Of a DNA stretch of 33,059 nt, positions 10,641 through 18,581 are shown piece after piece (the stretch's first letter is position 1; each line of letters opens with the position of its first letter). Origin of the DNA: Deltaproteobacteria bacterium. Lineage in GTDB: Bacteria; Desulfobacterota; Desulfobaccia; Desulfobaccales; 0-14-0-80-60-11. The position numbers and the translations under genes were made by a program. Below the pieces are notes generated by a model, which was not told where the DNA came from, did not search any database, and worked only from the letters and a program-made list of their open reading frames with translations. The stretch spans positions 1 through 33,059 of the forward strand of contig JARRQO010000023.1 of assembly GCA_037381685.1 (NCBI GenBank). The letters are read 5' to 3'.

Positions 10641-11699
10641 CTACCAGGTTTGGGTCATCGCCTCCATCTCATCTTTCAGTTCCCGGGCCATTAACTTTTT
10701 TACGGCTTCCTTGGGTGCCAGGCCTTCATAGAGGATCTTGTAAGATGCGGTCACCAGGGGCATTTCCACCCCCAGGCGCTGCGCCAGGGCATATACGGCC
10801 CGGGAAGTCTTCACCCCTTCCGCCACCATGGCCATGCCGGTGAGAATCTGGTCCAGAGAAACGCCCTGCCCCAGCTTCATGCCGACCTGAAAATTGCGGC
10901 TCTGGGTGCTGGTGCAGGTGAGGATCAGGTCTCCCAAGCCGGCCAGGCCCGTGAGGGTCATGGGGTTGGCGCCGAGCCGCGCCCCCAGCCGAACCATTTC
11001 GGCCAGCCCCCGGGTGATGAGCGCCGCCCGGGGATTATCCCCCAGGCCCATGCCTGAAATTATCCCGGTGCCAATGGCAAAGATGTTTTTCAGCGCCCCT
11101 CCCAGCTCCACACCGGTAACGTCGTGGGAGGTGTAGACCCGAAAGTAGGGGGCGGAAAAGGTGCGTTGCAGAAAGTGGGCGATGTCCCGCTGCCGGCAGG
11201 CAATGGTCACCGCGGTGGGCTGTTTCTGGACCACTTCCCGGGCAAAACTGGGACCGGACAGCACCGCGTAAGGCGTCTCCGCCCCCATTTCCTCCCGCAC
11301 CACCCCTTCCATGGTGAGAAGCGAATCGATCTCCATGCCCTTGGTGGCGCTGATCAGCACTGCGCCGGCCGGCCAGTACCGCACCAGATCGCGCCCCACC
11401 TGCCGGAAGCCGTGAGAGGGCACCACCATAAGGATCATCCCGGCCCCGTTTAGGGCCTCGGGAAATTCCCGGGTGAAGCGAATCCGGGAGGACAGACGCA
11501 CCCCGGGCAAAAAGGTTTGGTTGATCCGTTCCCGGCTCAGGACTTCATAGACCTCGGGCTCCCTGACCCAAAGGCGGACGGTTAGTCCCTTTTCCGCCAA
11601 AAGCTGCGCCAGCGCGGTGCCCCAACTGCCGGCGCCGATTACGGCAATGGTTTTGGCCTCAGGAGATTCCAAGTTTGGATTCAACCTCGCCGTTACCAT
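10641..11699 (-). CDS. gpsA: NAD(P)H-dependent glycerol-3-phosphate dehydrogenase
   Basis: [14 protein letters not shown] Rossmann motif. [13 protein letters not shown] and [11 protein letters not shown] motifs. The ATG at 11699 overlaps the gyrA 3' end by 41 nt; an internal TTG (about 11672) is an alternative start. Confidence 0.9.
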
Positions 11700-13998
11700 T
11701 TTTTTCCGCCACCTTGGCTACACTTACCACCTTCTCTTCCGCCTCCAGGTCCATGAGCTTAACTCCCTGGGTGACCCGGCCGATCAAAGATATGCCTTGG
11801 GCCAGCATGCGCAAAATTTTACCACCATCGGTGACCAGCATGATTTCATCATCGCCGAACACTTGGAGGATGCTCATAATGGGGCCGTTGCGTTTGGTAA
11901 TATCCAGCCCCTTGACCCCCTGGCCGCCCCGGTGGTGCTCCGGATACTTCTTCGGGTCAGTGCGCTTGCCAAAGCCCCGTTCCGTCACCGTGAGGATGGT
12001 GCCCCCGGTACGTAACACTTCCATGCCCACCACCCGGTCCTCGGGGAGCACTTCCATGCCCTTGACTCCTCGGGCGATGCGGCCCATGTCCCGGACCTCC
12101 GACGACGCGAAGCGAATAATCTTGCCCAACTTGGTGCCCATCAGGATACTCTGCTCAGGTTCACTCATTCTAACGCTCACCAGTTCGTCCTCGGCGTCCA
12201 GGCTAATGGCAATAATGCCGCCGCTGCGAGGCCGTTGGAAGTTGGTCAGCTCGGTTTTCTTGATGGTCCCCCGCCGGGTGGCCATTACCACGGATACTCC
12301 CGGGTTAAATTCCCGCACCGACAGGATGGTGGCCAATTTTTCGCCTTCTCCCAACTGCAGCAGGTTGACGATGGCCTTGCCTTGAGCCGAAGGCGAGCCG
12401 ACGGGAATTTCGTGGACCTTCAGCCAAAACACCCGGCCTTTGCTGGTGAACACCAGAAAATAGTTGTGGGTGGAGGCGATGTACAGTTGGGAAACGAAAT
12501 CGTTTTCCCGGGTAACCATGCCCATGCGGCCTTTACCGCCCCGGCGCTGACTGCGGTAAATGGTCAGGGGGGTGCGCTTGATGTAACCCCGATGGCTGAT
12601 GGTCACCACCATCTCTTCATCGGCGATCAGGTCTTCCGCGGTGATATCCTGGGCCTGAGGCACGATATCGGTGCGCCGCTCGTCACCGTAGCGTTCCTTC
12701 AATTCAGTCAATTCCTGGGCGATGAGGGCCTTGACTTCGGTCTCTTCCGCCAGAATCCGGCGCAACCGGGCCATGTTCTCGGCCACCGCCTGGGCCTCCT
12801 GCACGATCTTTTGGCGTTCCATCCCCGTGAGTCGCTGCAACCGCATATCCAAAATGGCCTGGGCCTGAGTCTCGGACAGAGCATAGCGGCTCCGGGTTTC
12901 CTCCAAACTGAGGATATCCGGGGCCTCCTGGATGAACATACCGGCCATCAACTGCTGCTTGGCTTCCGGGGGATTGGCTGCGGCCCGGATAAGATCGATG
13001 ACCTGGTCCAGAAAATCCAGGGCAATGAGCAGGCCGTCCAGAATATGGGCCCGGGCCTCCGCCTGCTTCAACTCATAACGGGTGCGCCGGAGGATCACTT
13101 CCCGGCGGTGCTCCAGAAAATGCTGCAGCAGGTCCTTGAGGCTTAACAATTCCGGCCGGTTGTGGACGATGGCCACCAGATTGATGCCAAAGGTGACCTG
13201 CATCTGCGTGTGGAGATATAGCTGGTTCAGGATGGGTTGCGGCAGTTCATCCTTTTTGAGGAGGATCGCCACCCGCAGGCCTTCCCGGTCCGATTCATCC
13301 CGGATATCGGAGATGCCTTCCACCTTCTTGTCTTTCACCAACTCGGCGATGCGCTCAATCAGCCGGGCCTTGTTCACCTGATAGGGCAGCTCCCGGATAA
13401 TCAGGCTTTCCCGGCCACCTTTGCGCTCCACCGTCACCTTGGCCCGGAGGCGGATGAGCCCCCGGCCGGTGCGATAGGCCTCGGCAATGCCTTCGGCCCC
13501 GTAAATAAAGGCTCCGGTGGGGAAATCCGGCCCCGGCAGGATGGCCATCAGTTTTTCCAGGCTAATCTCCGGATTTTTGAGGCTGGCCAGGAGCGCGTCG
13601 CAAACCTCGCCCAGGTTATGGGGCGGGATGTTGGTGGCCATGCCCACGGCAATGCCCGAGCCCCCGTTGACCAGCAGGTTCGGCAGGCGGGTGGGCAGCA
13701 CCAGCGGCTCTTTGAGGGAGCCGTCGTAGTTGCCCACGAAATCCACCGTGTCTTTGTCCAGGTCCTGGAGCAGCTCGTGGGCCAGCCGGGTTAGCCTAAC
13801 CTCGGTGTAACGCATGGCCGCGGGCGCATCCCCGTCAATGGACCCGAAGTTGCCCTGGCCGTCCACCAGCGGATAGCGCAGGGAAAAGTCCTGGGCCATG
13901 CGCACGATGGCGTCATAGACCGCGGTGTCATCCTCAATGTTGATAGGTACCGCGTGTGCTTCCATCATATTGAATAGACTCTGTTGTTTGTTGTCCAT
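11659..13998 (-). CDS. gyrA: DNA gyrase subunit A homologue with an in-frame loss of the conserved N-terminal block (possibly defective, chimeric, or an assembly artefact)
   Basis: [45 protein letters not shown] (catalytic Tyr), [23 protein letters not shown], and a C-terminal beta-pinwheel with repeated G-rich blades. The N-terminus reads [24 protein letters not shown] directly fused to the GyrA residue-82 equivalent. No SD precedes the ATG. Confidence 0.85.
13934..13992. repeat. 59-bp direct repeat, copy A (equals the first ~22 codons of the gyrA ORF)
   Basis: tcaatgttgataggtaccgCgtgtgcttccatcatAttgaatagactctgttgtttgtt. Two mismatches to copy B. Weaker homology continues to the ATG at 13998. 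Confidence 0.95.
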
Positions 13999-14000
13999 TT

Positions 14001-14047
14001 TCTGTATTTATCTGCGTCCATCTGCGGCTTTAAATCTCAACCGCCGA
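14001..14047. repeat. CGCAGATG-type leader motif, degenerate copy immediately 5' of the gyrA start codon
   Basis: Minus strand: ccatcggcggttgagatttaaagccgcagatggacgcagataaatacagaaaATG. It aligns with the MNT leader (..tctgcggttaaatgaaagcgcagatgggcgcagatgaatacaga..). Confidence 0.85.
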
Positions 14048-14078
14048 TGGACCGGGATTAGCTTATTAACTGCTGCTC

Positions 14079-14101
14079 GTTCCCAAGCCCAACTTGGGAA
14101 C
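14079..14101 (-). terminator. Stem-loop gttcccaag-cccaa-cttgggaac 18 nt downstream of the hicA stop (no U-tract)
   Basis: Perfect 9-bp stem read from the sequence. The lack of a T-run makes intrinsic-terminator function uncertain. Confidence 0.3.
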
Positions 14102-14118
14102 CAGGGGGAAATCAGTAA

Positions 14119-14340
14119 CTACAATTCAAATTCACTCCGTGGAATCCCAGACTGTCGAATAATTGATTGCAGCGTTCCTATTCTAAGTTCGGCATGATCA
14201 ACAACTGGAATAGTAATCGTACTGCCCGGAACCATCTTCTGCATAAGAAGATGGCTGCCTCGCTGGCGAACTTCTTTGAATCCGTGATTCGATAAGATTC
14301 GGCAGACCTCTTTGCCGGAAAGAACGCGAAGTTTACCCAA
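14119..14340 (-). CDS. hicA: HicA-family mRNA interferase toxin (type II TA)
   Basis: MGKLRVLSGKEVCRILSNHGFKEVRQRGSHLLM matches the HicA/YcfA pattern (SGKE...GF...RQxGSH). TTG start with GAGG 7 nt upstream. 8-nt overlap with hicB. Confidence 0.85.
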   Translation of the reverse strand: MGKLRVLSGKEVCRILSNHGFKEVRQRGSHLLMQKMVPGSTITIPVVDHAELRIGTLQSIIRQSGIPRSEFEL

Positions 14341-14554
14341 CCGCTACCTCAACCTGGGTAATATAGACCTCTTCCCGGAGACGGTCTTTAATCTCCTCTT
14401 TAGATGCTGTCTCAAAAAACAGTTCCAAGGCTTCCTGGAGATTTTTCCGCGCTGCCTCGATGGTATCTCCCTGGCTGGCTATATCAAGTTCCGGACACAG
14501 AGATACATAGCCATTGCCTTCCCGTTCAATGATGGCGGTAAGTTGGCGCTTCAT
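14333..14554 (-). CDS. hicB: HicB-family antitoxin (short, UPF0150-type, no obvious DNA-binding extension)
   Basis: TAIIEREGNGYVSLCPELDIASQGDTIEAARKNLQEALELFFE is the typical HicB partial-RNase-H-fold core. GGAG RBS. Translationally coupled to hicA. Confidence 0.75.
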   Translation of the reverse strand: MKRQLTAIIEREGNGYVSLCPELDIASQGDTIEAARKNLQEALELFFETASKEEIKDRLREEVYITQVEVAVG

Positions 14555-14676
14555 GGTTTCTCCGATCTAATTTGCTGGTTTCTTTGCCCTCGGATAACCC
14601 ACAAGGCCATGCGAGTAGTCTTAACATAGTCTCTTTCCAATCTTTACCTGGAGGAATATTTCACTTTTTAGACTCT

Positions 14677-14735
14677 TCAATGTTGATAGGTACCGTGTGT
14701 GCTTCCATCATGTTGAATAGACTCTGTTGTTTGTT
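14677..14735. repeat. 59-bp direct repeat, copy B (between the ATPase stop and the hicB start)
   Basis: tcaatgttgataggtaccgTgtgtgcttccatcatGttgaatagactctgttgtttgtt. Minus-strand reading is ..[28 protein letters not shown]. It has CTG in place of the ATG and a 6-nt indel relative to copy A. Confidence 0.95.
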
Positions 14736-14780
14736 TGAAATGTCCAGGGTTGATCACCTAATATTTATATCAGCAATTAA

Positions 14781-16613
14781 TTAATTGGTGAAAGAAGAGA
14801 AGTGTTCAAATATTTCAATAACTTCTGCGAAGACACCAAAATCTTGCTTCTCTGCTTCACGGAGATAAAGCATCTTTAATCGGCCTATATCGAGTCTTGC
14901 TTGGGAAGCGAAGATTTTTATTATTTGGCGACCAGGAATTAGGTATTTCCAAAGATTATTTCCGTCCGCAAGGCTATTTTCCAATACTTGGAATTTTTCA
15001 GCAACAACTTGATTTATTATGCTTGCGTCAAGTTCACTGGTAATGCGCCCCTGCTCTTCGGAAGCTCGTCCTGAAATCAAATCTAATAACTCTTCTTTCG
15101 ATCGTTTATGGCAATCCTTGGCCATTAAATCAATATTACCGGCCTGCTGCCGGAAGATTGTGGAAACTTGTAGGGAAACTGCATAAGAAATAGTACTACG
15201 CGCGATCTCGCGAAGTCTTTTTAGAATTTCTTCCGGCGAAATTAGCCAAGATTCCTCAGATTCCATCTGAGAGAAAATTTGAGCTAGGATTTGCTCATCA
15301 AGGAAGTAATTTTCCAAATGATATCTTGGAAGTACACGGAAACGATCAAGAGCTCTGCTTCCTTCTAGCGGCTCTGAAGGTGAGGAAGGCGAGGTATCAC
15401 CATCACAAAGCATAAAAAAATCAACACCCCAAATTGTTTTCTCAAGTACCTGGGAAGATATTGTAGAAAAAGAGATGATGGTTGCCTTTCCTCCACTGGG
15501 AACTAAAACCAAGTTTGGAAATTTGTTTTTTATGATTGAGCCATAAACTAACTTGTCAAGACTGGCGTTCGTCCCTTCAATGAGCACTATACGCCTTCCT
15601 AATGCTACTATCCCTATAGATTGACCAAGTAAACGCAATGCTTGGTTTGTTTCATCATCCGAAGTAACAAGAATGGCTTGATTGGTCCCGGAATCATTGG
15701 GAGGAGCGATAAAAATCACGGAATGTTCAAGTGAAGCTGTAATGATGTCTGGAGAATGTGTGCAAAAGATAAATTGGTTTTTTTCCCCTATAGTTTCCAG
15801 AGTTCTCATTAGCTTAAAACTTAATTCAGGGTGCAAGTGCAATTCTGGTTCATCAAAAATCACAATGCTGTGAGAGGGTCTCCTGAGAAGGAAGTCAAAA
15901 ACGATGTTTACTACTTCCTGCTCACCGGAGCTAAGAGTTGTAACAGGAAATTGTTTTCCCTCGCATGCATAATCGAGGTGAGTCTTTTTTAAATCAGGGC
16001 TTAACAATTCCTTTGGTGAGAGGAGCTGACTGAAAGCCCGCTTAAATGGTTCTAAAGGGTCCTTGAAATTTAATTCCATGGAAGTCTCGCCTTGGAGCAT
16101 AAGCTCCTCGGCTTTTTTAGCAATACGGTCTCTTTGGCTCTGGACTTTGCGAAAAATTGAATGCAAGGTGTCTTGGAAGCGAGATTTAAGTCCTTCAAAT
16201 GTTGTATTCCAACCAATATTCTCTTCATATGGATCTTTAATATCCCATGAGAATTTGAAGGGAGTGATCTTCTGTATTGAACGGTCGCTTTCGAAGTTAA
16301 TTATACTGCTCCTCCATTTTGTCCGAAGGCGACCTTTGTGCAGAATGCCCTGGAGCCTCAATGCATCCTTTGGATCGCTAGTATCAATTTCCTTCTTGCC
16401 CCAATCCTTGATTTCTTCAGCAGTGGTCGCATGAATGACAAGCTGTATATTTTTCCTCGAAGTTGGATTCTGAAAATAATAAAGTAGGGCTTGTGCCAAT
16501 CGTGTCTTGCCTACCCCGTTCGGACCAGCAAGCACAATAATATTTGATAGCTCACCTGCTTCAAAACTTTTGATAGGTGGAACGTCTTTTACTGAGATAT
16601 GCGTTAATCGCAT
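14781..16613 (-). CDS. ABC-type (SMC/RecF-like, AAA_15/21-type) ATPase fused to a DUF4435/TOPRIM-like C-terminal module; OLD-family / single-polypeptide PARIS (AriA-AriB)-like candidate defence protein
   Basis: Walker A VLAGPNGVGKT; signature LSSGEQ; Walker B/D-loop IVIFDEPELHLHP; H-loop FCTHSP. C-terminal half has RRIVLIEGTNASLDK, VLVPSGGK, FFMLCDGD and LPRYHLENYFLD (Glu / DxD / ENY pattern of TOPRIM-like DUF4435). About 40% GC against a roughly 60% GC host. Confidence 0.7.
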   Translation of the reverse strand: MRLTHISVKDVPPIKSFEAGELSNIIVLAGPNGVGKTRLAQALLYYFQNPTSRKNIQLVIHATTAEEIKDWGKKEIDTSDPKDALRLQGILHKGRLRTKWRSSIINFESDRSIQKITPFKFSWDIKDPYEENIGWNTTFEGLKSRFQDTLHSIFRKVQSQRDRIAKKAEELMLQGETSMELNFKDPLEPFKRAFSQLLSPKELLSPDLKKTHLDYACEGKQFPVTTLSSGEQEVVNIVFDFLLRRPSHSIVIFDEPELHLHPELSFKLMRTLETIGEKNQFIFCTHSPDIITASLEHSVIFIAPPNDSGTNQAILVTSDDETNQALRLLGQSIGIVALGRRIVLIEGTNASLDKLVYGSIIKNKFPNLVLVPSGGKATIISFSTISSQVLEKTIWGVDFFMLCDGDTSPSSPSEPLEGSRALDRFRVLPRYHLENYFLDEQILAQIFSQMESEESWLISPEEILKRLREIARSTISYAVSLQVSTIFRQQAGNIDLMAKDCHKRSKEELLDLISGRASEEQGRITSELDASIINQVVAEKFQVLENSLADGNNLWKYLIPGRQIIKIFASQARLDIGRLKMLYLREAEKQDFGVFAEVIEIFEHFSSFTN

Positions 16614-16635
16614 TCTAAATTATCCTCTGGAAAAT

Positions 16636-16941
16636 CTAAGCGGCATACACAACCTCTTTGGTCGTCAAGATATTATGACGCCGAAACGGATTGCGAATAG
16701 CATCTTTTTCTACCAAGTCGACTTCATGGCCCAAAATTGCCGCCAGCTCATCCGACATCTCCACCCGGTTATCGAACATGATTCCTCCATCCGGTTCAAA
16801 AGTCACCAGCACATCCACATCACTATCAGTCCGAAAATCATCCCGCAGCACCGACCCGAACAGCGCCAATTCTTTGATCTTCCAGCGACGGCAGAAGTCT
16901 TCGATCTGCTTTAAGGGAATATTAATTTTGGCTTGAGGCAT
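16636..16941 (-). CDS. Minimal nucleotidyltransferase (MNT / MntA-like, Pol-beta superfamily) lacking an adjacent HEPN partner
   Basis: LALFGSVLRDDFRTDSDVDVLVTF is the GSx(10)DxD signature of MNT antitoxins. 101 aa. The stop lies 22 nt upstream of the ATPase start, which has its own GAGGA RBS. Confidence 0.85.
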   Translation of the reverse strand: MPQAKINIPLKQIEDFCRRWKIKELALFGSVLRDDFRTDSDVDVLVTFEPDGGIMFDNRVEMSDELAAILGHEVDLVEKDAIRNPFRRHNILTTKEVVYAA

Positions 16942-16961
16942 TTTTAGCTTAATCTGTATTC

Positions 16962-17007
16962 ATCTGCGCCCATCTGCGCTTTCATTTAACCGCAGATTAA
17001 CGCAGAT
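16962..17007. repeat. Double-stem hairpin ATCTGCG-ccc-ATCTGCG-(12 nt)-CGCAGAT-taa-CGCAGAT between the GxxExxY stop and the MNT start
   Basis: Read directly: two 7-nt arms are repeated on each side and are perfectly complementary. Located 3' of the GxxExxY gene and 5' of the MNT gene on the minus strand. Confidence 0.9.
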
Positions 17008-17026
17008 AAGAGCTGATAAACACGGA

Positions 17027-17422
17027 TTAATAATTATTCACAATACGCCTGATTTCCGCCTTGGGCCTGCCAAAATTAACCAGCAAACACACTGAAAGAT
17101 CAGTAGCCCTAAGATAATTCAAGCACTGGGCCATATGCACCTCATCCAAGGCCCTGGCTACCTTTAACTCTATAAGAACCTTGTCCTCGACTAACAAATC
17201 TGCAGCAAACTCCCCCACGACCATCGTATCGTATCTAACCTGAATGCCATATTGCTGCTTGGCCTCCAACCCGTTTTTTCTGAGTTCCAGCGCTAACGCA
17301 TTTTCATAAACCTTCTCCAAAAATCCACTTCCCAACGTATTACTTACCTTATAAACACAACCAATAATCCTTTCCGTAATACTATTCAAATCTAATCTAT
17401 ATTCATCCTTATTCATCTGCAT
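17027..17422 (-). CDS. GxxExxY family protein (PD-(D/E)XK-like small protein)
   Basis: GSGFLEKVYENALALEL (GxxExxY motif), ADLLVEDKVLIELKV, and the CLLVNFG C-terminal motif of the family. The start codon is embedded in a decamer tandem repeat. Confidence 0.85.
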   Translation of the reverse strand: MQMNKDEYRLDLNSITERIIGCVYKVSNTLGSGFLEKVYENALALELRKNGLEAKQQYGIQVRYDTMVVGEFAADLLVEDKVLIELKVARALDEVHMAQCLNYLRATDLSVCLLVNFGRPKAEIRRIVNNY

Positions 17423-17452
17423 TCATCTGCGTCCATCTGCGTTCATCTGCGG
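17401..17452. repeat. Tandem decamer array (about 5 units of rttcatctgc on the + strand, i.e. GCAGATGAAY on the minus strand)
   Basis: attcatcctt|attcatctgc|attcatctgc|gtccatctgc|gttcatctgc|gg. It covers the GxxExxY start codon and its first codons (MQMNKDE), and it fills most of the 43-nt gap to the LivK-like stop codon. Confidence 0.9.
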
Positions 17453-17465
17453 TTAAATTATTTTT

Positions 17466-18581
17466 TTACGGCTTCATCGTCGTCAGATATACAAACTTCC
17501 CTTTCTCCACTTTGATGATGGTCACGTCCTTGATGGGATTGTGGTTCGGCCCCATGGTAATGGTGCCCGTCACCCCGGGAAAATCTTTAGTCGCGGCCAG
17601 GGCCCCCGCCACCTTGACCCCAGCGGTGCTGCCGGCCTGGGCCATGGCTGCGGTCAAAAGGAAATAGCTGTCGCCGCCCAGGGCCGCAAAGCCGGACAGG
17701 GGTTTGTGGTACTTGGCCTCATAGGCCTGCATGAATTTTTTCCCCAGCTTCGTGTTGGCGCCCTGACGGTGAAAGAGCGCGGTGAAGTACATGCCGTTCA
17801 CCGCGGGCCCGCCGATGCTGAGCAGTTCCGGCACCTGGGCCCCGTCTCCGGTTAAAATCGGGGTTTTGACCCCCAACTCCTTAAGCTGCTTGGCCAACAG
17901 CGCATCTTCAGTGTAGTAATTCGGCGCGTAGATGAGATCGGGCTTGGCCGCCTTCAGGGCCGAAATCTGGGCGCTGAAATCCTGGTCGCCGGTCTGGATA
18001 TAGCTGACGGAAACAATCTGGCCGCCCAGGCGCTTGAATTCCTCCATAAAATACTTGGCCAGGCCGACGCAGTAATCCTGGGCCTGGTCGATGAGCACCG
18101 CCACCCGCCGGGCTTTCAGGTTTTTATAGGCGAACCGGGCCGCCACTTTGCCCTGCAGGTCATCCACATACGCGGCCCGAAAGGCGTATTTCCGGTTCTG
18201 GGTCACCAGGGGATTGGTGGCGGTGGGAGTGATATTGGGAATCTTGGCCCGCTCGGCGATGGGCACCCCGGCCAGGGTATCGCTGCTGATCACCTCGCCG
18301 ATGATGGCCGCCACGTGATCCTGCTCAATGAGACGGCTCACCGCATTGGCCGCCTCTATGCGGTCGCTGCGGGTGTCCAGCATCACCAGCTTGATGGGCT
18401 GCCCCAACACCCGGGGTTCCAGCTTGTGGGCCACCTGAACGCCTTCCCACACCATCTGCCCCATGGCCGCGGCCGGCCCGGTCATGGGGAGATAGAGCCC
18501 GATTTTGACAACAGCCGCGGCCGGAGCCGCCAGGATCAGCAACAGGCCGGCAACCAGAAAGAACTGTTTAATTAGTCGCAT
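17466..18581 (-). CDS. ABC transporter substrate-binding protein, branched-chain amino acid (LivJ/LivK, type 1 PBP) family
   Basis: Signal peptide followed by KIGLYLPMTGPAAAMG. Overall Leu/Ile/Val-binding-protein-like pattern. No permease or ATPase genes adjacent. Confidence 0.85.
   Translation of the reverse strand: MRLIKQFFLVAGLLLILAAPAAAVVKIGLYLPMTGPAAAMGQMVWEGVQVAHKLEPRVLGQPIKLVMLDTRSDRIEAANAVSRLIEQDHVAAIIGEVISSDTLAGVPIAERAKIPNITPTATNPLVTQNRKYAFRAAYVDDLQGKVAARFAYKNLKARRVAVLIDQAQDYCVGLAKYFMEEFKRLGGQIVSVSYIQTGDQDFSAQISALKAAKPDLIYAPNYYTEDALLAKQLKELGVKTPILTGDGAQVPELLSIGGPAVNGMYFTALFHRQGANTKLGKKFMQAYEAKYHKPLSGFAALGGDSYFLLTAAMAQAGSTAGVKVAGALAATKDFPGVTGTITMGPNHNPIKDVTIIKVEKGKFVYLTTMKP

Follow-up and report, generated by a model that had tools for sequence, protein, structure and literature searches.

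The window analysed here (the whole stretch of DNA, 33,059 nt) contains an AT-rich island between a livK-like gene and gyrA, in which the GC fraction is 0.41-0.43 over positions ~14000-17450 against ~0.60 in the flanks. Both the island and three co-oriented ORFs on its minus strand had been described in an earlier reading of the sequence alone, and the ORFs were recovered at exactly the coordinates then given (Table 1).

Table 1. Features of the livK-gyrA interval and its flanking genes.
Feature	Position	Strand	Evidence or remark
livK-like periplasmic binding protein	17466..18581	-	PF13458 3e-59; conserved flank on the left of the hotspot, in synteny at every related locus
Inverted arrays of 10-nt repeat CGCAGATGRA, bracketing GxxExxY	arms 16984-17033 + 17409-17458	.	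8 matches vs 0.01 by chance
GxxExxY / PD-(D/E)XK_3 small protein, 131 aa	17027..17422	-	PF13366 PDDEXK_3 1.3e-40, TIGR04256 5.5e-41
MNT nucleotidyltransferase, 101 aa	16636..16941	-	PF01909 5e-18, PF18765 3e-14
Residual hepT start ATGCCGCTTAG, codons M-P-L	16636..16646	-	11 nt overlapping the MNT stop; junction comparison
Merged PARIS-like AriAB, 610 aa	14781..16613	-	PADLOC AriAB PDLC02981 9.7e-55, residues 165-574
Native gyrA upstream region + first 13 gyrA codons (repeat copy 2)	14674..14767	-	remnant
HicB + HicA pair	14554-14333 + 14340-14119 (14119..14554)	-	HicA_toxin PF07927 1.1e-16; inserted into gyrA start
gyrA	11659..13998	-	start region duplicated (13928-13992)

The first of the three ORFs had been assigned to the GxxExxY family and this assignment stands, the protein scoring 139.6 bits against TIGR04256 (cut-off 35) and also matching PF13366. 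The second had been called an MNT nucleotidyltransferase with a canonical GSx10DxD motif, which is confirmed by matches to PF01909 and PF18765 and by the motif G29-S30-x10-D41-x-D43. PADLOC models of PDC-S09 match this protein at 1e-28, and the NCBIfam MntA model (NF047752) gives it 52.1 bits, below the equivalog cut-off of 60. The protein is an MntA-type antitoxin that is orphaned here. The absence of a HEPN gene beside it was also correctly noted in the earlier reading, as a tblastn search with the HepT of the related strain L088 (E<=10) found no HepT near the island.

The third ORF encodes a merged PARIS (AriAB-type) ABC ATPase-TOPRIM protein, an already known gene type; AriA and AriB are sometimes fused and two merged clades have been described (Burman et al. 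2024, PMC11464382). An ABC ATPase occupies approximately residues 1-310 and an AriB-like DUF4435/TOPRIM module with a helical domain approximately residues 311-610. The ATPase part carries a Walker A motif (GPNGVGKT30), an ABC signature (LSSGE227), a Walker B motif (IVIFDEPE250) and an H-loop (THS285), matches AAA_21 (4e-19) and AAA_15 (3e-17) and in a profile search of the PDB matches AriA (8ux9_B, 1.6e-12). The sequence-only reading had proposed an ABC ATPase fused to a DUF4435/TOPRIM-like module, and both the ATPase and an AriB-like TOPRIM were found, but Pfam DUF4435 (PF14491) gave no match to the window protein even at E<=1 and matched 8 of 36 family members, the window protein not among them. 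The TOPRIM/AriB assignment is instead due to the PADLOC AriAB model, a fold search and invariant acidic residues. In a domain-only AF2 model of the C-terminal half (pLDDT 83), made from an alignment of 21 rows, the significant PDB fold matches were solely to AriB (8ux9_A and 8v46_D); searching the PDB with the family profile of this half gave no sequence-level match. Throughout the family E346, D353, D404, D406 and E434, the acidic residues of the TOPRIM, are invariant. The protein had also been described as an OLD/PARIS-like effector and it is the PARIS side of this description that is borne out, AriAB being the best PADLOC model; membership of the OLD family was rejected, as there was no match to the OLD-like TOPRIM PF20469 and the PADLOC Old model matched at 1.8e-14 vs 1e-54 for AriAB. 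The earlier statement that the C-terminus of the ATPase has no Rx4-6H motif was formally incorrect, a Rx5H being present at R426-VLPRY-H432, but this lies in a conserved RYHLENYF segment within the AriB-like C-terminal module and is therefore not a HEPN motif. The protein belongs to a divergent merged-PARIS family that is largely missed by the Pfam DUF4435 model and is widely distributed, with >1,000 homologues across many phyla.

The arrangement of these genes had led to the suggestion that the effector had acquired the MNT as its regulator, acting for example by nucleotidylylation, the two forming a new two-gene module. The two genes are co-oriented, the gap of 22 nt between them was found as reported, with a GAGGA that gives the ATPase its own RBS, and they are probably co-transcribed, simply because the cassette came to lie 22 nt downstream of the MNT. 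A promoter and terminator scan was uninformative, with counts close to the shuffled expectation. In addition the MNT is under purifying selection despite having no HepT, and its adjacency to AriAB is found in four lineages (window/L086, L004, L006 and L172) with a spacing of 12-32 nt. These four lineages all represent one locus, however, and are therefore not independent; they go back to shared ancestry or allelic exchange rather than to repeated selection. Whether an MNT recurs immediately upstream of ATPase homologues had been put forward as a check, and no such recurrence at independent loci was observed in a set of 80 species-level genomes from many phyla that carry an ATPase homologue (43-77% identity). 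An MNT was upstream of the ATPase in one of the 80 (L006), at the same chromosomal locus as in the window, and in the other 79 neither an MNT nor a HepT lay within 5 kb; all-against-all clustering of the flanking ORFs of the 80 loci found no recurrent ATPase partner outside close relatives. At the livK-gyrA locus itself, three lineages hold an intact ATPase without an MNT. One of these (L001-L003) retains ~20 nt of the MNT 3' end as a scar at a junction in common with the window, from which it derives by deletion of the MNT, and its ATPase ORF is intact with a dN/dS of 0.17 vs the window. In L171 livK is followed directly by the ATPase and in L173 the ATPase is preceded by a HicB-like gene. 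The same MNT orthologue is moreover followed by at least five unrelated cargo genes and, most often, by HepT. Recruitment of the MNT as a regulator of AriAB is already largely refuted by these neighbourhood data and we regard it as very improbable.

The origin of the juxtaposition is indicated by the occupants of the same site in other strains. In L088/L089 an MNT with 87% identity to the window's is followed, with an 11-nt overlap, by a HepT gene (PF01934); the same order is present in at least 13 further syntenic loci, and HepT is found downstream in 51 of 80 MNT homologue loci. Behind orthologous MNTs (73-87% identity) were also found an N6_N4 methylase-Mrr fusion, a HEC-01A ATPase, a TIR-like protein and a 499-aa protein of unknown function, and in some strains the MNT orthologue is followed by a truncated hepT or directly by gyrA. 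Comparison of the junction after the MNT stop in 24 syntenic loci showed that homology of the window to hepT stops directly after this stop codon. In L088, where hepT is intact, the gene opens with MPLSKRD at the same ATG as the remnant in the window, in which codons 1-3 are kept, as are codons 1-5 in L004. The length of hepT retained after the MNT stop varies by locus from 0 to about 45 nt, and with breakpoints that differ in this way the replacements were independent events. A hepT remnant, which the sequence-only reading had named as evidence that would speak against its module, is therefore detectable although minimal, and its alternative proposal, that the genes came together by accident once hepT had been lost, is supported by this remnant, by the 87% identical MNT with an intact hepT at the same site and by the neighbourhood data above.

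It is therefore very likely that the livK-gyrA interval is a hotspot in which hepT was replaced by a self-sufficient AriAB, that the MNT is a leftover antitoxin and that it has no functional partnership with AriAB. A canonical MntA-HepT pair would originally have occupied the place after livK, and in the lineage of the window an AriAB gene would have taken the place of hepT. The MNT may have outlasted hepT because loss of the toxin is presumably harmless and loss of the antitoxin is not. AriAB would act as a self-sufficient single-polypeptide system and, by homology with the two-protein PARIS of E. coli, its ABC ATPase part may sense a phage trigger protein such as Ocr, after which the TOPRIM part would cleave host tRNA and so arrest translation. 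With a leftover MNT and a self-contained AriAB, the two would be neighbours by chance in a hotspot and would not represent a new system. This serves as a caution that tight, co-oriented pairs with RBS spacing in AT-rich islands can arise purely by cassette replacement in a hotspot, of which orphan antitoxins are the expected survivors.

The state of the orphan MNTs has nevertheless to be accounted for. All 14 orphan MNTs at the livK-gyrA locus are full length with GSx10DxD, dN/dS between orphan MNTs is 0.10, equal to that of HepT-paired copies, and between the MNTs of the window and L004, which both bear AriAB, it is 0.094 at a dS of 1.09, indicating purifying selection. This selection and the kept catalytic motif are unlike a dead remnant and count against a view of these genes as debris. 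An orphan MNT might have a function of its own to which the downstream neighbour is irrelevant, either neutralising HepT paralogues elsewhere in the genome (anti-addiction) or acting as a stand-alone PDC-S09, which is matched by the models mentioned above and ranks with the most prevalent of the candidate systems (PMC12988326). The sole PDC-S09 representative tested, however, did not protect against T4, T5 or T7 (bioRxiv 10.1101/2024.09.26.614923) and the MNT was lost in L001-L003. The MNT tree also disagrees with the ATPase tree: the MNT of the window shares 87% identity with the MNT of a HepT-bearing strain and 83% with that of the AriAB-bearing L004, and the MNTs of L006 and L172 are mosaic. 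The MNT may therefore be conserved because it was orphaned recently and often exchanges alleles with HepT-paired copies, and a function of its own appears unlikely. There is similarly an outside chance that the MNT is kept as an anchor of the hotspot and is useful without its own HepT, by neutralising HepT in trans or by modulating the downstream cargo. If this were so, orphan MNTs beside swapped defence genes, AriAB included, would be a functional class and not debris.

The GxxExxY gene occupies the slot that separates livK from the MNT and is a variable cassette in its own right. It is found there in L092, L097, L098, L107, L108, L110, L112 and L114, regardless of what comes after the MNT, and is missing from L004, L006, L087 and L088. 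A role as partner of the MNT was rejected, since the gene is present in only some loci, irrespective of cargo, and is missing where livK abuts the MNT. In addition to the arrays that bracket it in the window, further copies of CGCAGATGRA occur at 16949-16978 and 13997-14026, and an equivalent inverted pair (AACCGCCGAT / ATCGGCGGT) flanks GxxExxY in seven other loci, which were all of those examined for flanks.

The island also contains a putative HicB/HicA toxin-antitoxin pair (type II) that was absent from the sequence-only reading. The HicB matches (UPF0150, HicB_lk) are weak and below the Pfam cut-offs, and the insertion is limited to the window and L086. The gyrA remnant, which is cut short by this insertion, aligns at 80-86% with the start of gyrA and the region upstream of it in L001, L004, L087 and L088, and forms with 13931-13992 a 62-nt direct repeat that is 95% identical. 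Possible gyrA pieces within the insert ('LIPVHRR' and 'ALWVIRGQ') were dropped as their scores were at chance level. The gyrA of the window has an in-frame deletion of 198 nt with its junction at about 13929, whereas in the sister contig L086 (99.65% identical) gyrA is intact and reads through. Such a deletion should be lethal and lies near the 62-nt repeat, which raises the question of whether misassembly of a metagenomic contig produced all or some of this arrangement. However, L086, which was independently assembled and belongs to another record, shows the same order GxxExxY-MNT-AriAB-HicBA-gyrA start, MNT-AriAB is also present in L004, L006 and L172, and the gyrA deletion alone is unique to the window. 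An artefactual origin is accordingly most improbable.

In this Desulfobaccales-like lineage toxin-antitoxin and defence cassettes occupy the livK-like/gyrA interval, a hotspot that varies between strains. The synteny livK-[X]-gyrA-gpsA-pfk is found at the same site in all close relatives, the hotspot has across strains two slots with at least eight alternative toxin-antitoxin or defence cargos, and in the window it is made up of four independent cassettes, namely GxxExxY, the orphan MntA antitoxin, the merged PARIS (AriAB) and HicBA. Core-genome defence hotspots are similar in being variable islands flanked by conserved genes, here the livK-like gene and gyrA. They differ in that no integrase, attC or tRNA was seen at the livK-gyrA site and that its breakpoints are heterogeneous, which suggests illegitimate or homologous recombination rather than a dedicated site-specific mechanism. 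The site offers a well-populated natural series of alternative cargos that could be used for studying defence-gene swapping.

The MNT resembles that of the MntA-HepT type VII toxin-antitoxin system (Yao et al. 2020, PMC7641770) in its size of ~100 aa, its GSx10DxD motif and the overlapping HepT-like gene (PF01934) downstream of its 87% identical same-locus counterpart, and differs in that the window has three hepT codons left in place of a HepT and in an NF047752 score under the cut-off. The OLD class 1/2 nucleases, Gabija GajA and the retron Eco8 effector share with the 610-aa protein the combination of ABC ATPase with TOPRIM and are its top full-length fold matches, but its C-terminal domain resembles AriB and not the TOPRIM of OLD or GajA. 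The closest likeness is to PARIS and its merged AriAB form (Rousset 2022; Burman et al. 2024). The C-terminal half is very divergent from E. coli AriB, but the AAA_15/21 ABC ATPase, the AriB fold of the C-terminus and the single polypeptide are held in common, the five invariant acidic residues are patterned as E26/D30/D88/E90/E122 of AriB, and the gene stands alone among variable defence-island neighbours.

The low-GC part of the window, in which the GC fraction is 0.41-0.43 over about 14000-17450 with surroundings of about 0.60, carries three co-oriented minus-strand ORFs whose positions match exactly those given by an earlier sequence-only reading. The third, the 610-aa ABC ATPase (hereafter AriAB), begins 22 nt past the gene for the minimal nucleotidyltransferase (MNT), is preceded by GAGGA and contains Walker A, signature, Walker B and H-loop motifs. 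A HicB and a HicA gene, missing from that reading's list, also lie within the island. The remaining window genes are housekeeping genes (gyrA, gpsA, pfk, metG, tamA/tamB and a UvrD-like helicase).

Features of the low-GC island and of compared loci
Feature	Locus	Positions	Strand	Match or motif
GxxExxY / PD-(D/E)XK_3 protein, 131 aa	window	17422-17027	minus	PF13366 1.3e-40, TIGR04256 5.5e-41
MNT, 101 aa	window	16941-16636	minus	PF01909 5e-18; G29-S30-x10-D41-x-D43
ABC ATPase (AriAB), 610 aa	window	16613-14781	minus	AAA_21 4e-19, AAA_15 3e-17
HicB	window	14554-14333		
HicA	window	14340-14119		PF07927 1e-16
gyrA	window	11659-13998	minus	
62-nt direct repeat	window	13931-13992, 14674-14735		
10-nt tandem repeats	window	16949-17033, 17392-17458, 13997-14026		CGCAGATGRA
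Hairpin after hicA	window	14076-14125		GTTCCCAAG...CTTGGGAAC
Hairpin after hepT	L088	3181-3230		GTTCCCAAG...CTTGGGAAC
Mosaic MNT	L006	4671-4988		
Mosaic MNT	L172	95-412		
499-aa cargo protein	L095	1902-3401		RSKIVH (Rx4H)

It had been proposed that the MNT and the ATPase/TOPRIM effector form a new module. This interpretation is not supported, as conservation of the neighbourhood is absent. The search for an MNT covered 80 species-level genomes that encode an ATPase homologue at 43-77% identity and come from Nitrospirota, cyanobacteria, Chloroflexota, Planctomycetota, Actinomycetota, Proteobacteria and other groups. With the window MNT as query, phmmer found an MNT in one of them, the AriAB-bearing relative L006, and an HMM built from 77 MNTs again recovered L006 only, which rules out the MNT as a conserved partner of the ATPase. 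A HepT HMM gave zero matches in the same genomes. In a Pfam scan of 92 co-oriented ORFs upstream of the homologues PF01909 was matched for L006 and was not among the families matched by two or more ORFs. No recurrent family was seen among the ORFs flanking the homologues at the 80 loci, which include several other defence genes (e.g. OLD-like, MmeI, Mrr).

Whether they match the ATPase (69-88% identity) or the MNT (73-87%), all close relatives lie at a common chromosomal site, livK-like, variable region, gyrA, gpsA, pfk, in MAGs named as Desulfobaccales or 'Deltaproteobacteria'. At this site in L088 and L089 an MNT 87% identical to that of the window is followed by a 120-aa HepT (PF01934) whose gene overlaps the MNT stop by 11 nt, the canonical MntA-HepT arrangement. 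The same order occurs at no fewer than 13 further syntenic loci, and HepT directly follows the MNT in 51 of 80 MNT homologue loci overall. Other cargos after the orthologous MNT are a fusion of N6_N4 methylase and Mrr (L092, L094, L100, L101), a HEC-01A AAA_21 ATPase (L102, L121, L122), a TIR-like protein (L112, L114), a functionally unassigned 499-aa protein (L095), truncated or internally deleted hepT (L096, L097, L107, L108, L110, L118), gyrA directly (L105, L123) and AriAB (the window and its sister contig L086, L004, L006, L172). The hepT sequence left past the MNT stop is 0 to about 45 nt long, with a divergence point that differs per cargo; L004 retains MPLSK and the window only ATGCCGCTTAG, the codons M-P-L, overlapping the MNT stop. 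The same-site HepT and this residue support the other possibility raised from sequence, juxtaposition after loss of hepT. The livK-MNT interval is a second slot that varies independently, holding GxxExxY (nine loci), a HicA-like gene (others) or nothing.

The 499-aa protein had no Pfam or PADLOC match; the Rx4H string close to its C-terminus means that it may be an uncharacterised HEPN-like effector. The MNT-HepT module also duplicates inside the hotspot, with tandem pairs or additional HepT copies by the MNT in a number of related loci (L123, L144, L156, L161, L167 and L169).

The ATPase can do without the MNT. In L001-L003 (ATPase 88% identical) livK is followed by a scar of about 20 nt of the MNT 3' end, with the same junction as the window (GCTTAG|ATTTTC), and then an intact ATPase; in L171 the ATPase comes straight after livK and in L173 after a HicB-like gene. 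The start codon therefore lies about 15-30 nt inside the left edge of the cassette, and the cassette has become attached to four different genes on that side. The window and L001 copies of the ATPase give a dN/dS of 0.17; for the MNT of the window and of L004, both AriAB-bearing, it is 0.094 at dS 1.09. A specific coupling of the MNT to AriAB is highly improbable.

The orphan MNTs show no decay: every one of the 14 examined retains its full length and the catalytic motif, and dN/dS for orphan-orphan pairs (0.10) equals that of HepT-paired pairs. Their upkeep could reflect frequent allelic exchange with HepT-paired copies, as the window MNT resembles the L088 copy more than the L004 one, and the MNT of L006 and L172 is a mosaic. 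In these two loci about 45 N-terminal residues are nearly identical to the window type and the C-terminal half belongs to another subtype (105 aa, ending PVYVAG), a pattern that indicates recombination within the gene. A role that does not involve HepT would be another explanation, and MNTs of this kind appear in PADLOC as candidate PDC-S09. One representative, tested in a preprint, failed to protect against T4, T5 or T7. A real independent function seems unlikely.

The HicBA cassette is bracketed by the 95% identical direct repeat of the gyrA start region. In the upstream copy the native sequence ahead of gyrA is kept and the gene runs for 13 codons before it breaks off; the downstream copy restores the start. 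HicBA was thus inserted at the extreme 5' end of essential gyrA, with a duplication rebuilding the start, and gyrA transcription now has to come from or through the cassette. At 13929 the window gyrA is 198 nt short of that in relatives (835 aa): 66 codons, for about residues 14-79, are missing, the gap ending directly before the conserved DTAVYD (junction INIED|DTAVYD). Since gyrA is intact at this point in L086 (99.65% identical), the deletion is an artefact of assembly or else marks a defective variant. The tandem CGCAGATGRA repeats occur only at the three tabulated positions (8 matches, where 0.01 would be expected) and make up inverted arms of 50 nt on both sides of GxxExxY, which is bracketed by AACCGCCGAT ... 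ATCGGCGGT in all seven other loci examined for flanks, suggesting a hairpin-bounded cassette. The hairpin shared by the window and L088, with similar ones after truncated hepT copies (L090, L096, L097, L107, L110), looks like a shared terminator, or a repeat element, at the ends of cassettes.

The best PADLOC model for the 610-aa protein, by a wide margin, was AriAB, the fused PARIS protein (PDLC02981, 9.7e-55, residues 165-574); the PtuA, Old and ATPase-Toprim models were much weaker and spanned the ATPase core only. The family profile matched AriA in the PDB (8ux9_B, 1.6e-12), and the full-length AF2 model (pLDDT 78) matched PtuA and the ATPase-TOPRIM proteins retron Eco8 OLD and GajA. Because Pfam DUF4435 fails to match the window protein and matches just 8 of 36 relatives, residues 311-610 were modelled separately (pLDDT 83, pTM 0.79). 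Only two PDB fold matches were significant, both to AriB: 8ux9_A at E 1e-4 and 8v46_D at E 6e-4 (probability 1.0, TM 0.40; next match E 0.25). Residues E346, D353, D404, D406 and E434 are invariant across 36 homologues, a pattern that fits the AriB ligands E26, D30, D88, E90 and E122 (PMC11464382). Occasional AriA-AriB fusion, with two merged clades, has been described (PMC11464382). The gene for the 610-aa protein thus belongs, as a divergent member, to a single-gene system already known. The system here is a new, divergent merged PARIS that has an orphan MntA as its neighbour within a defence hotspot.
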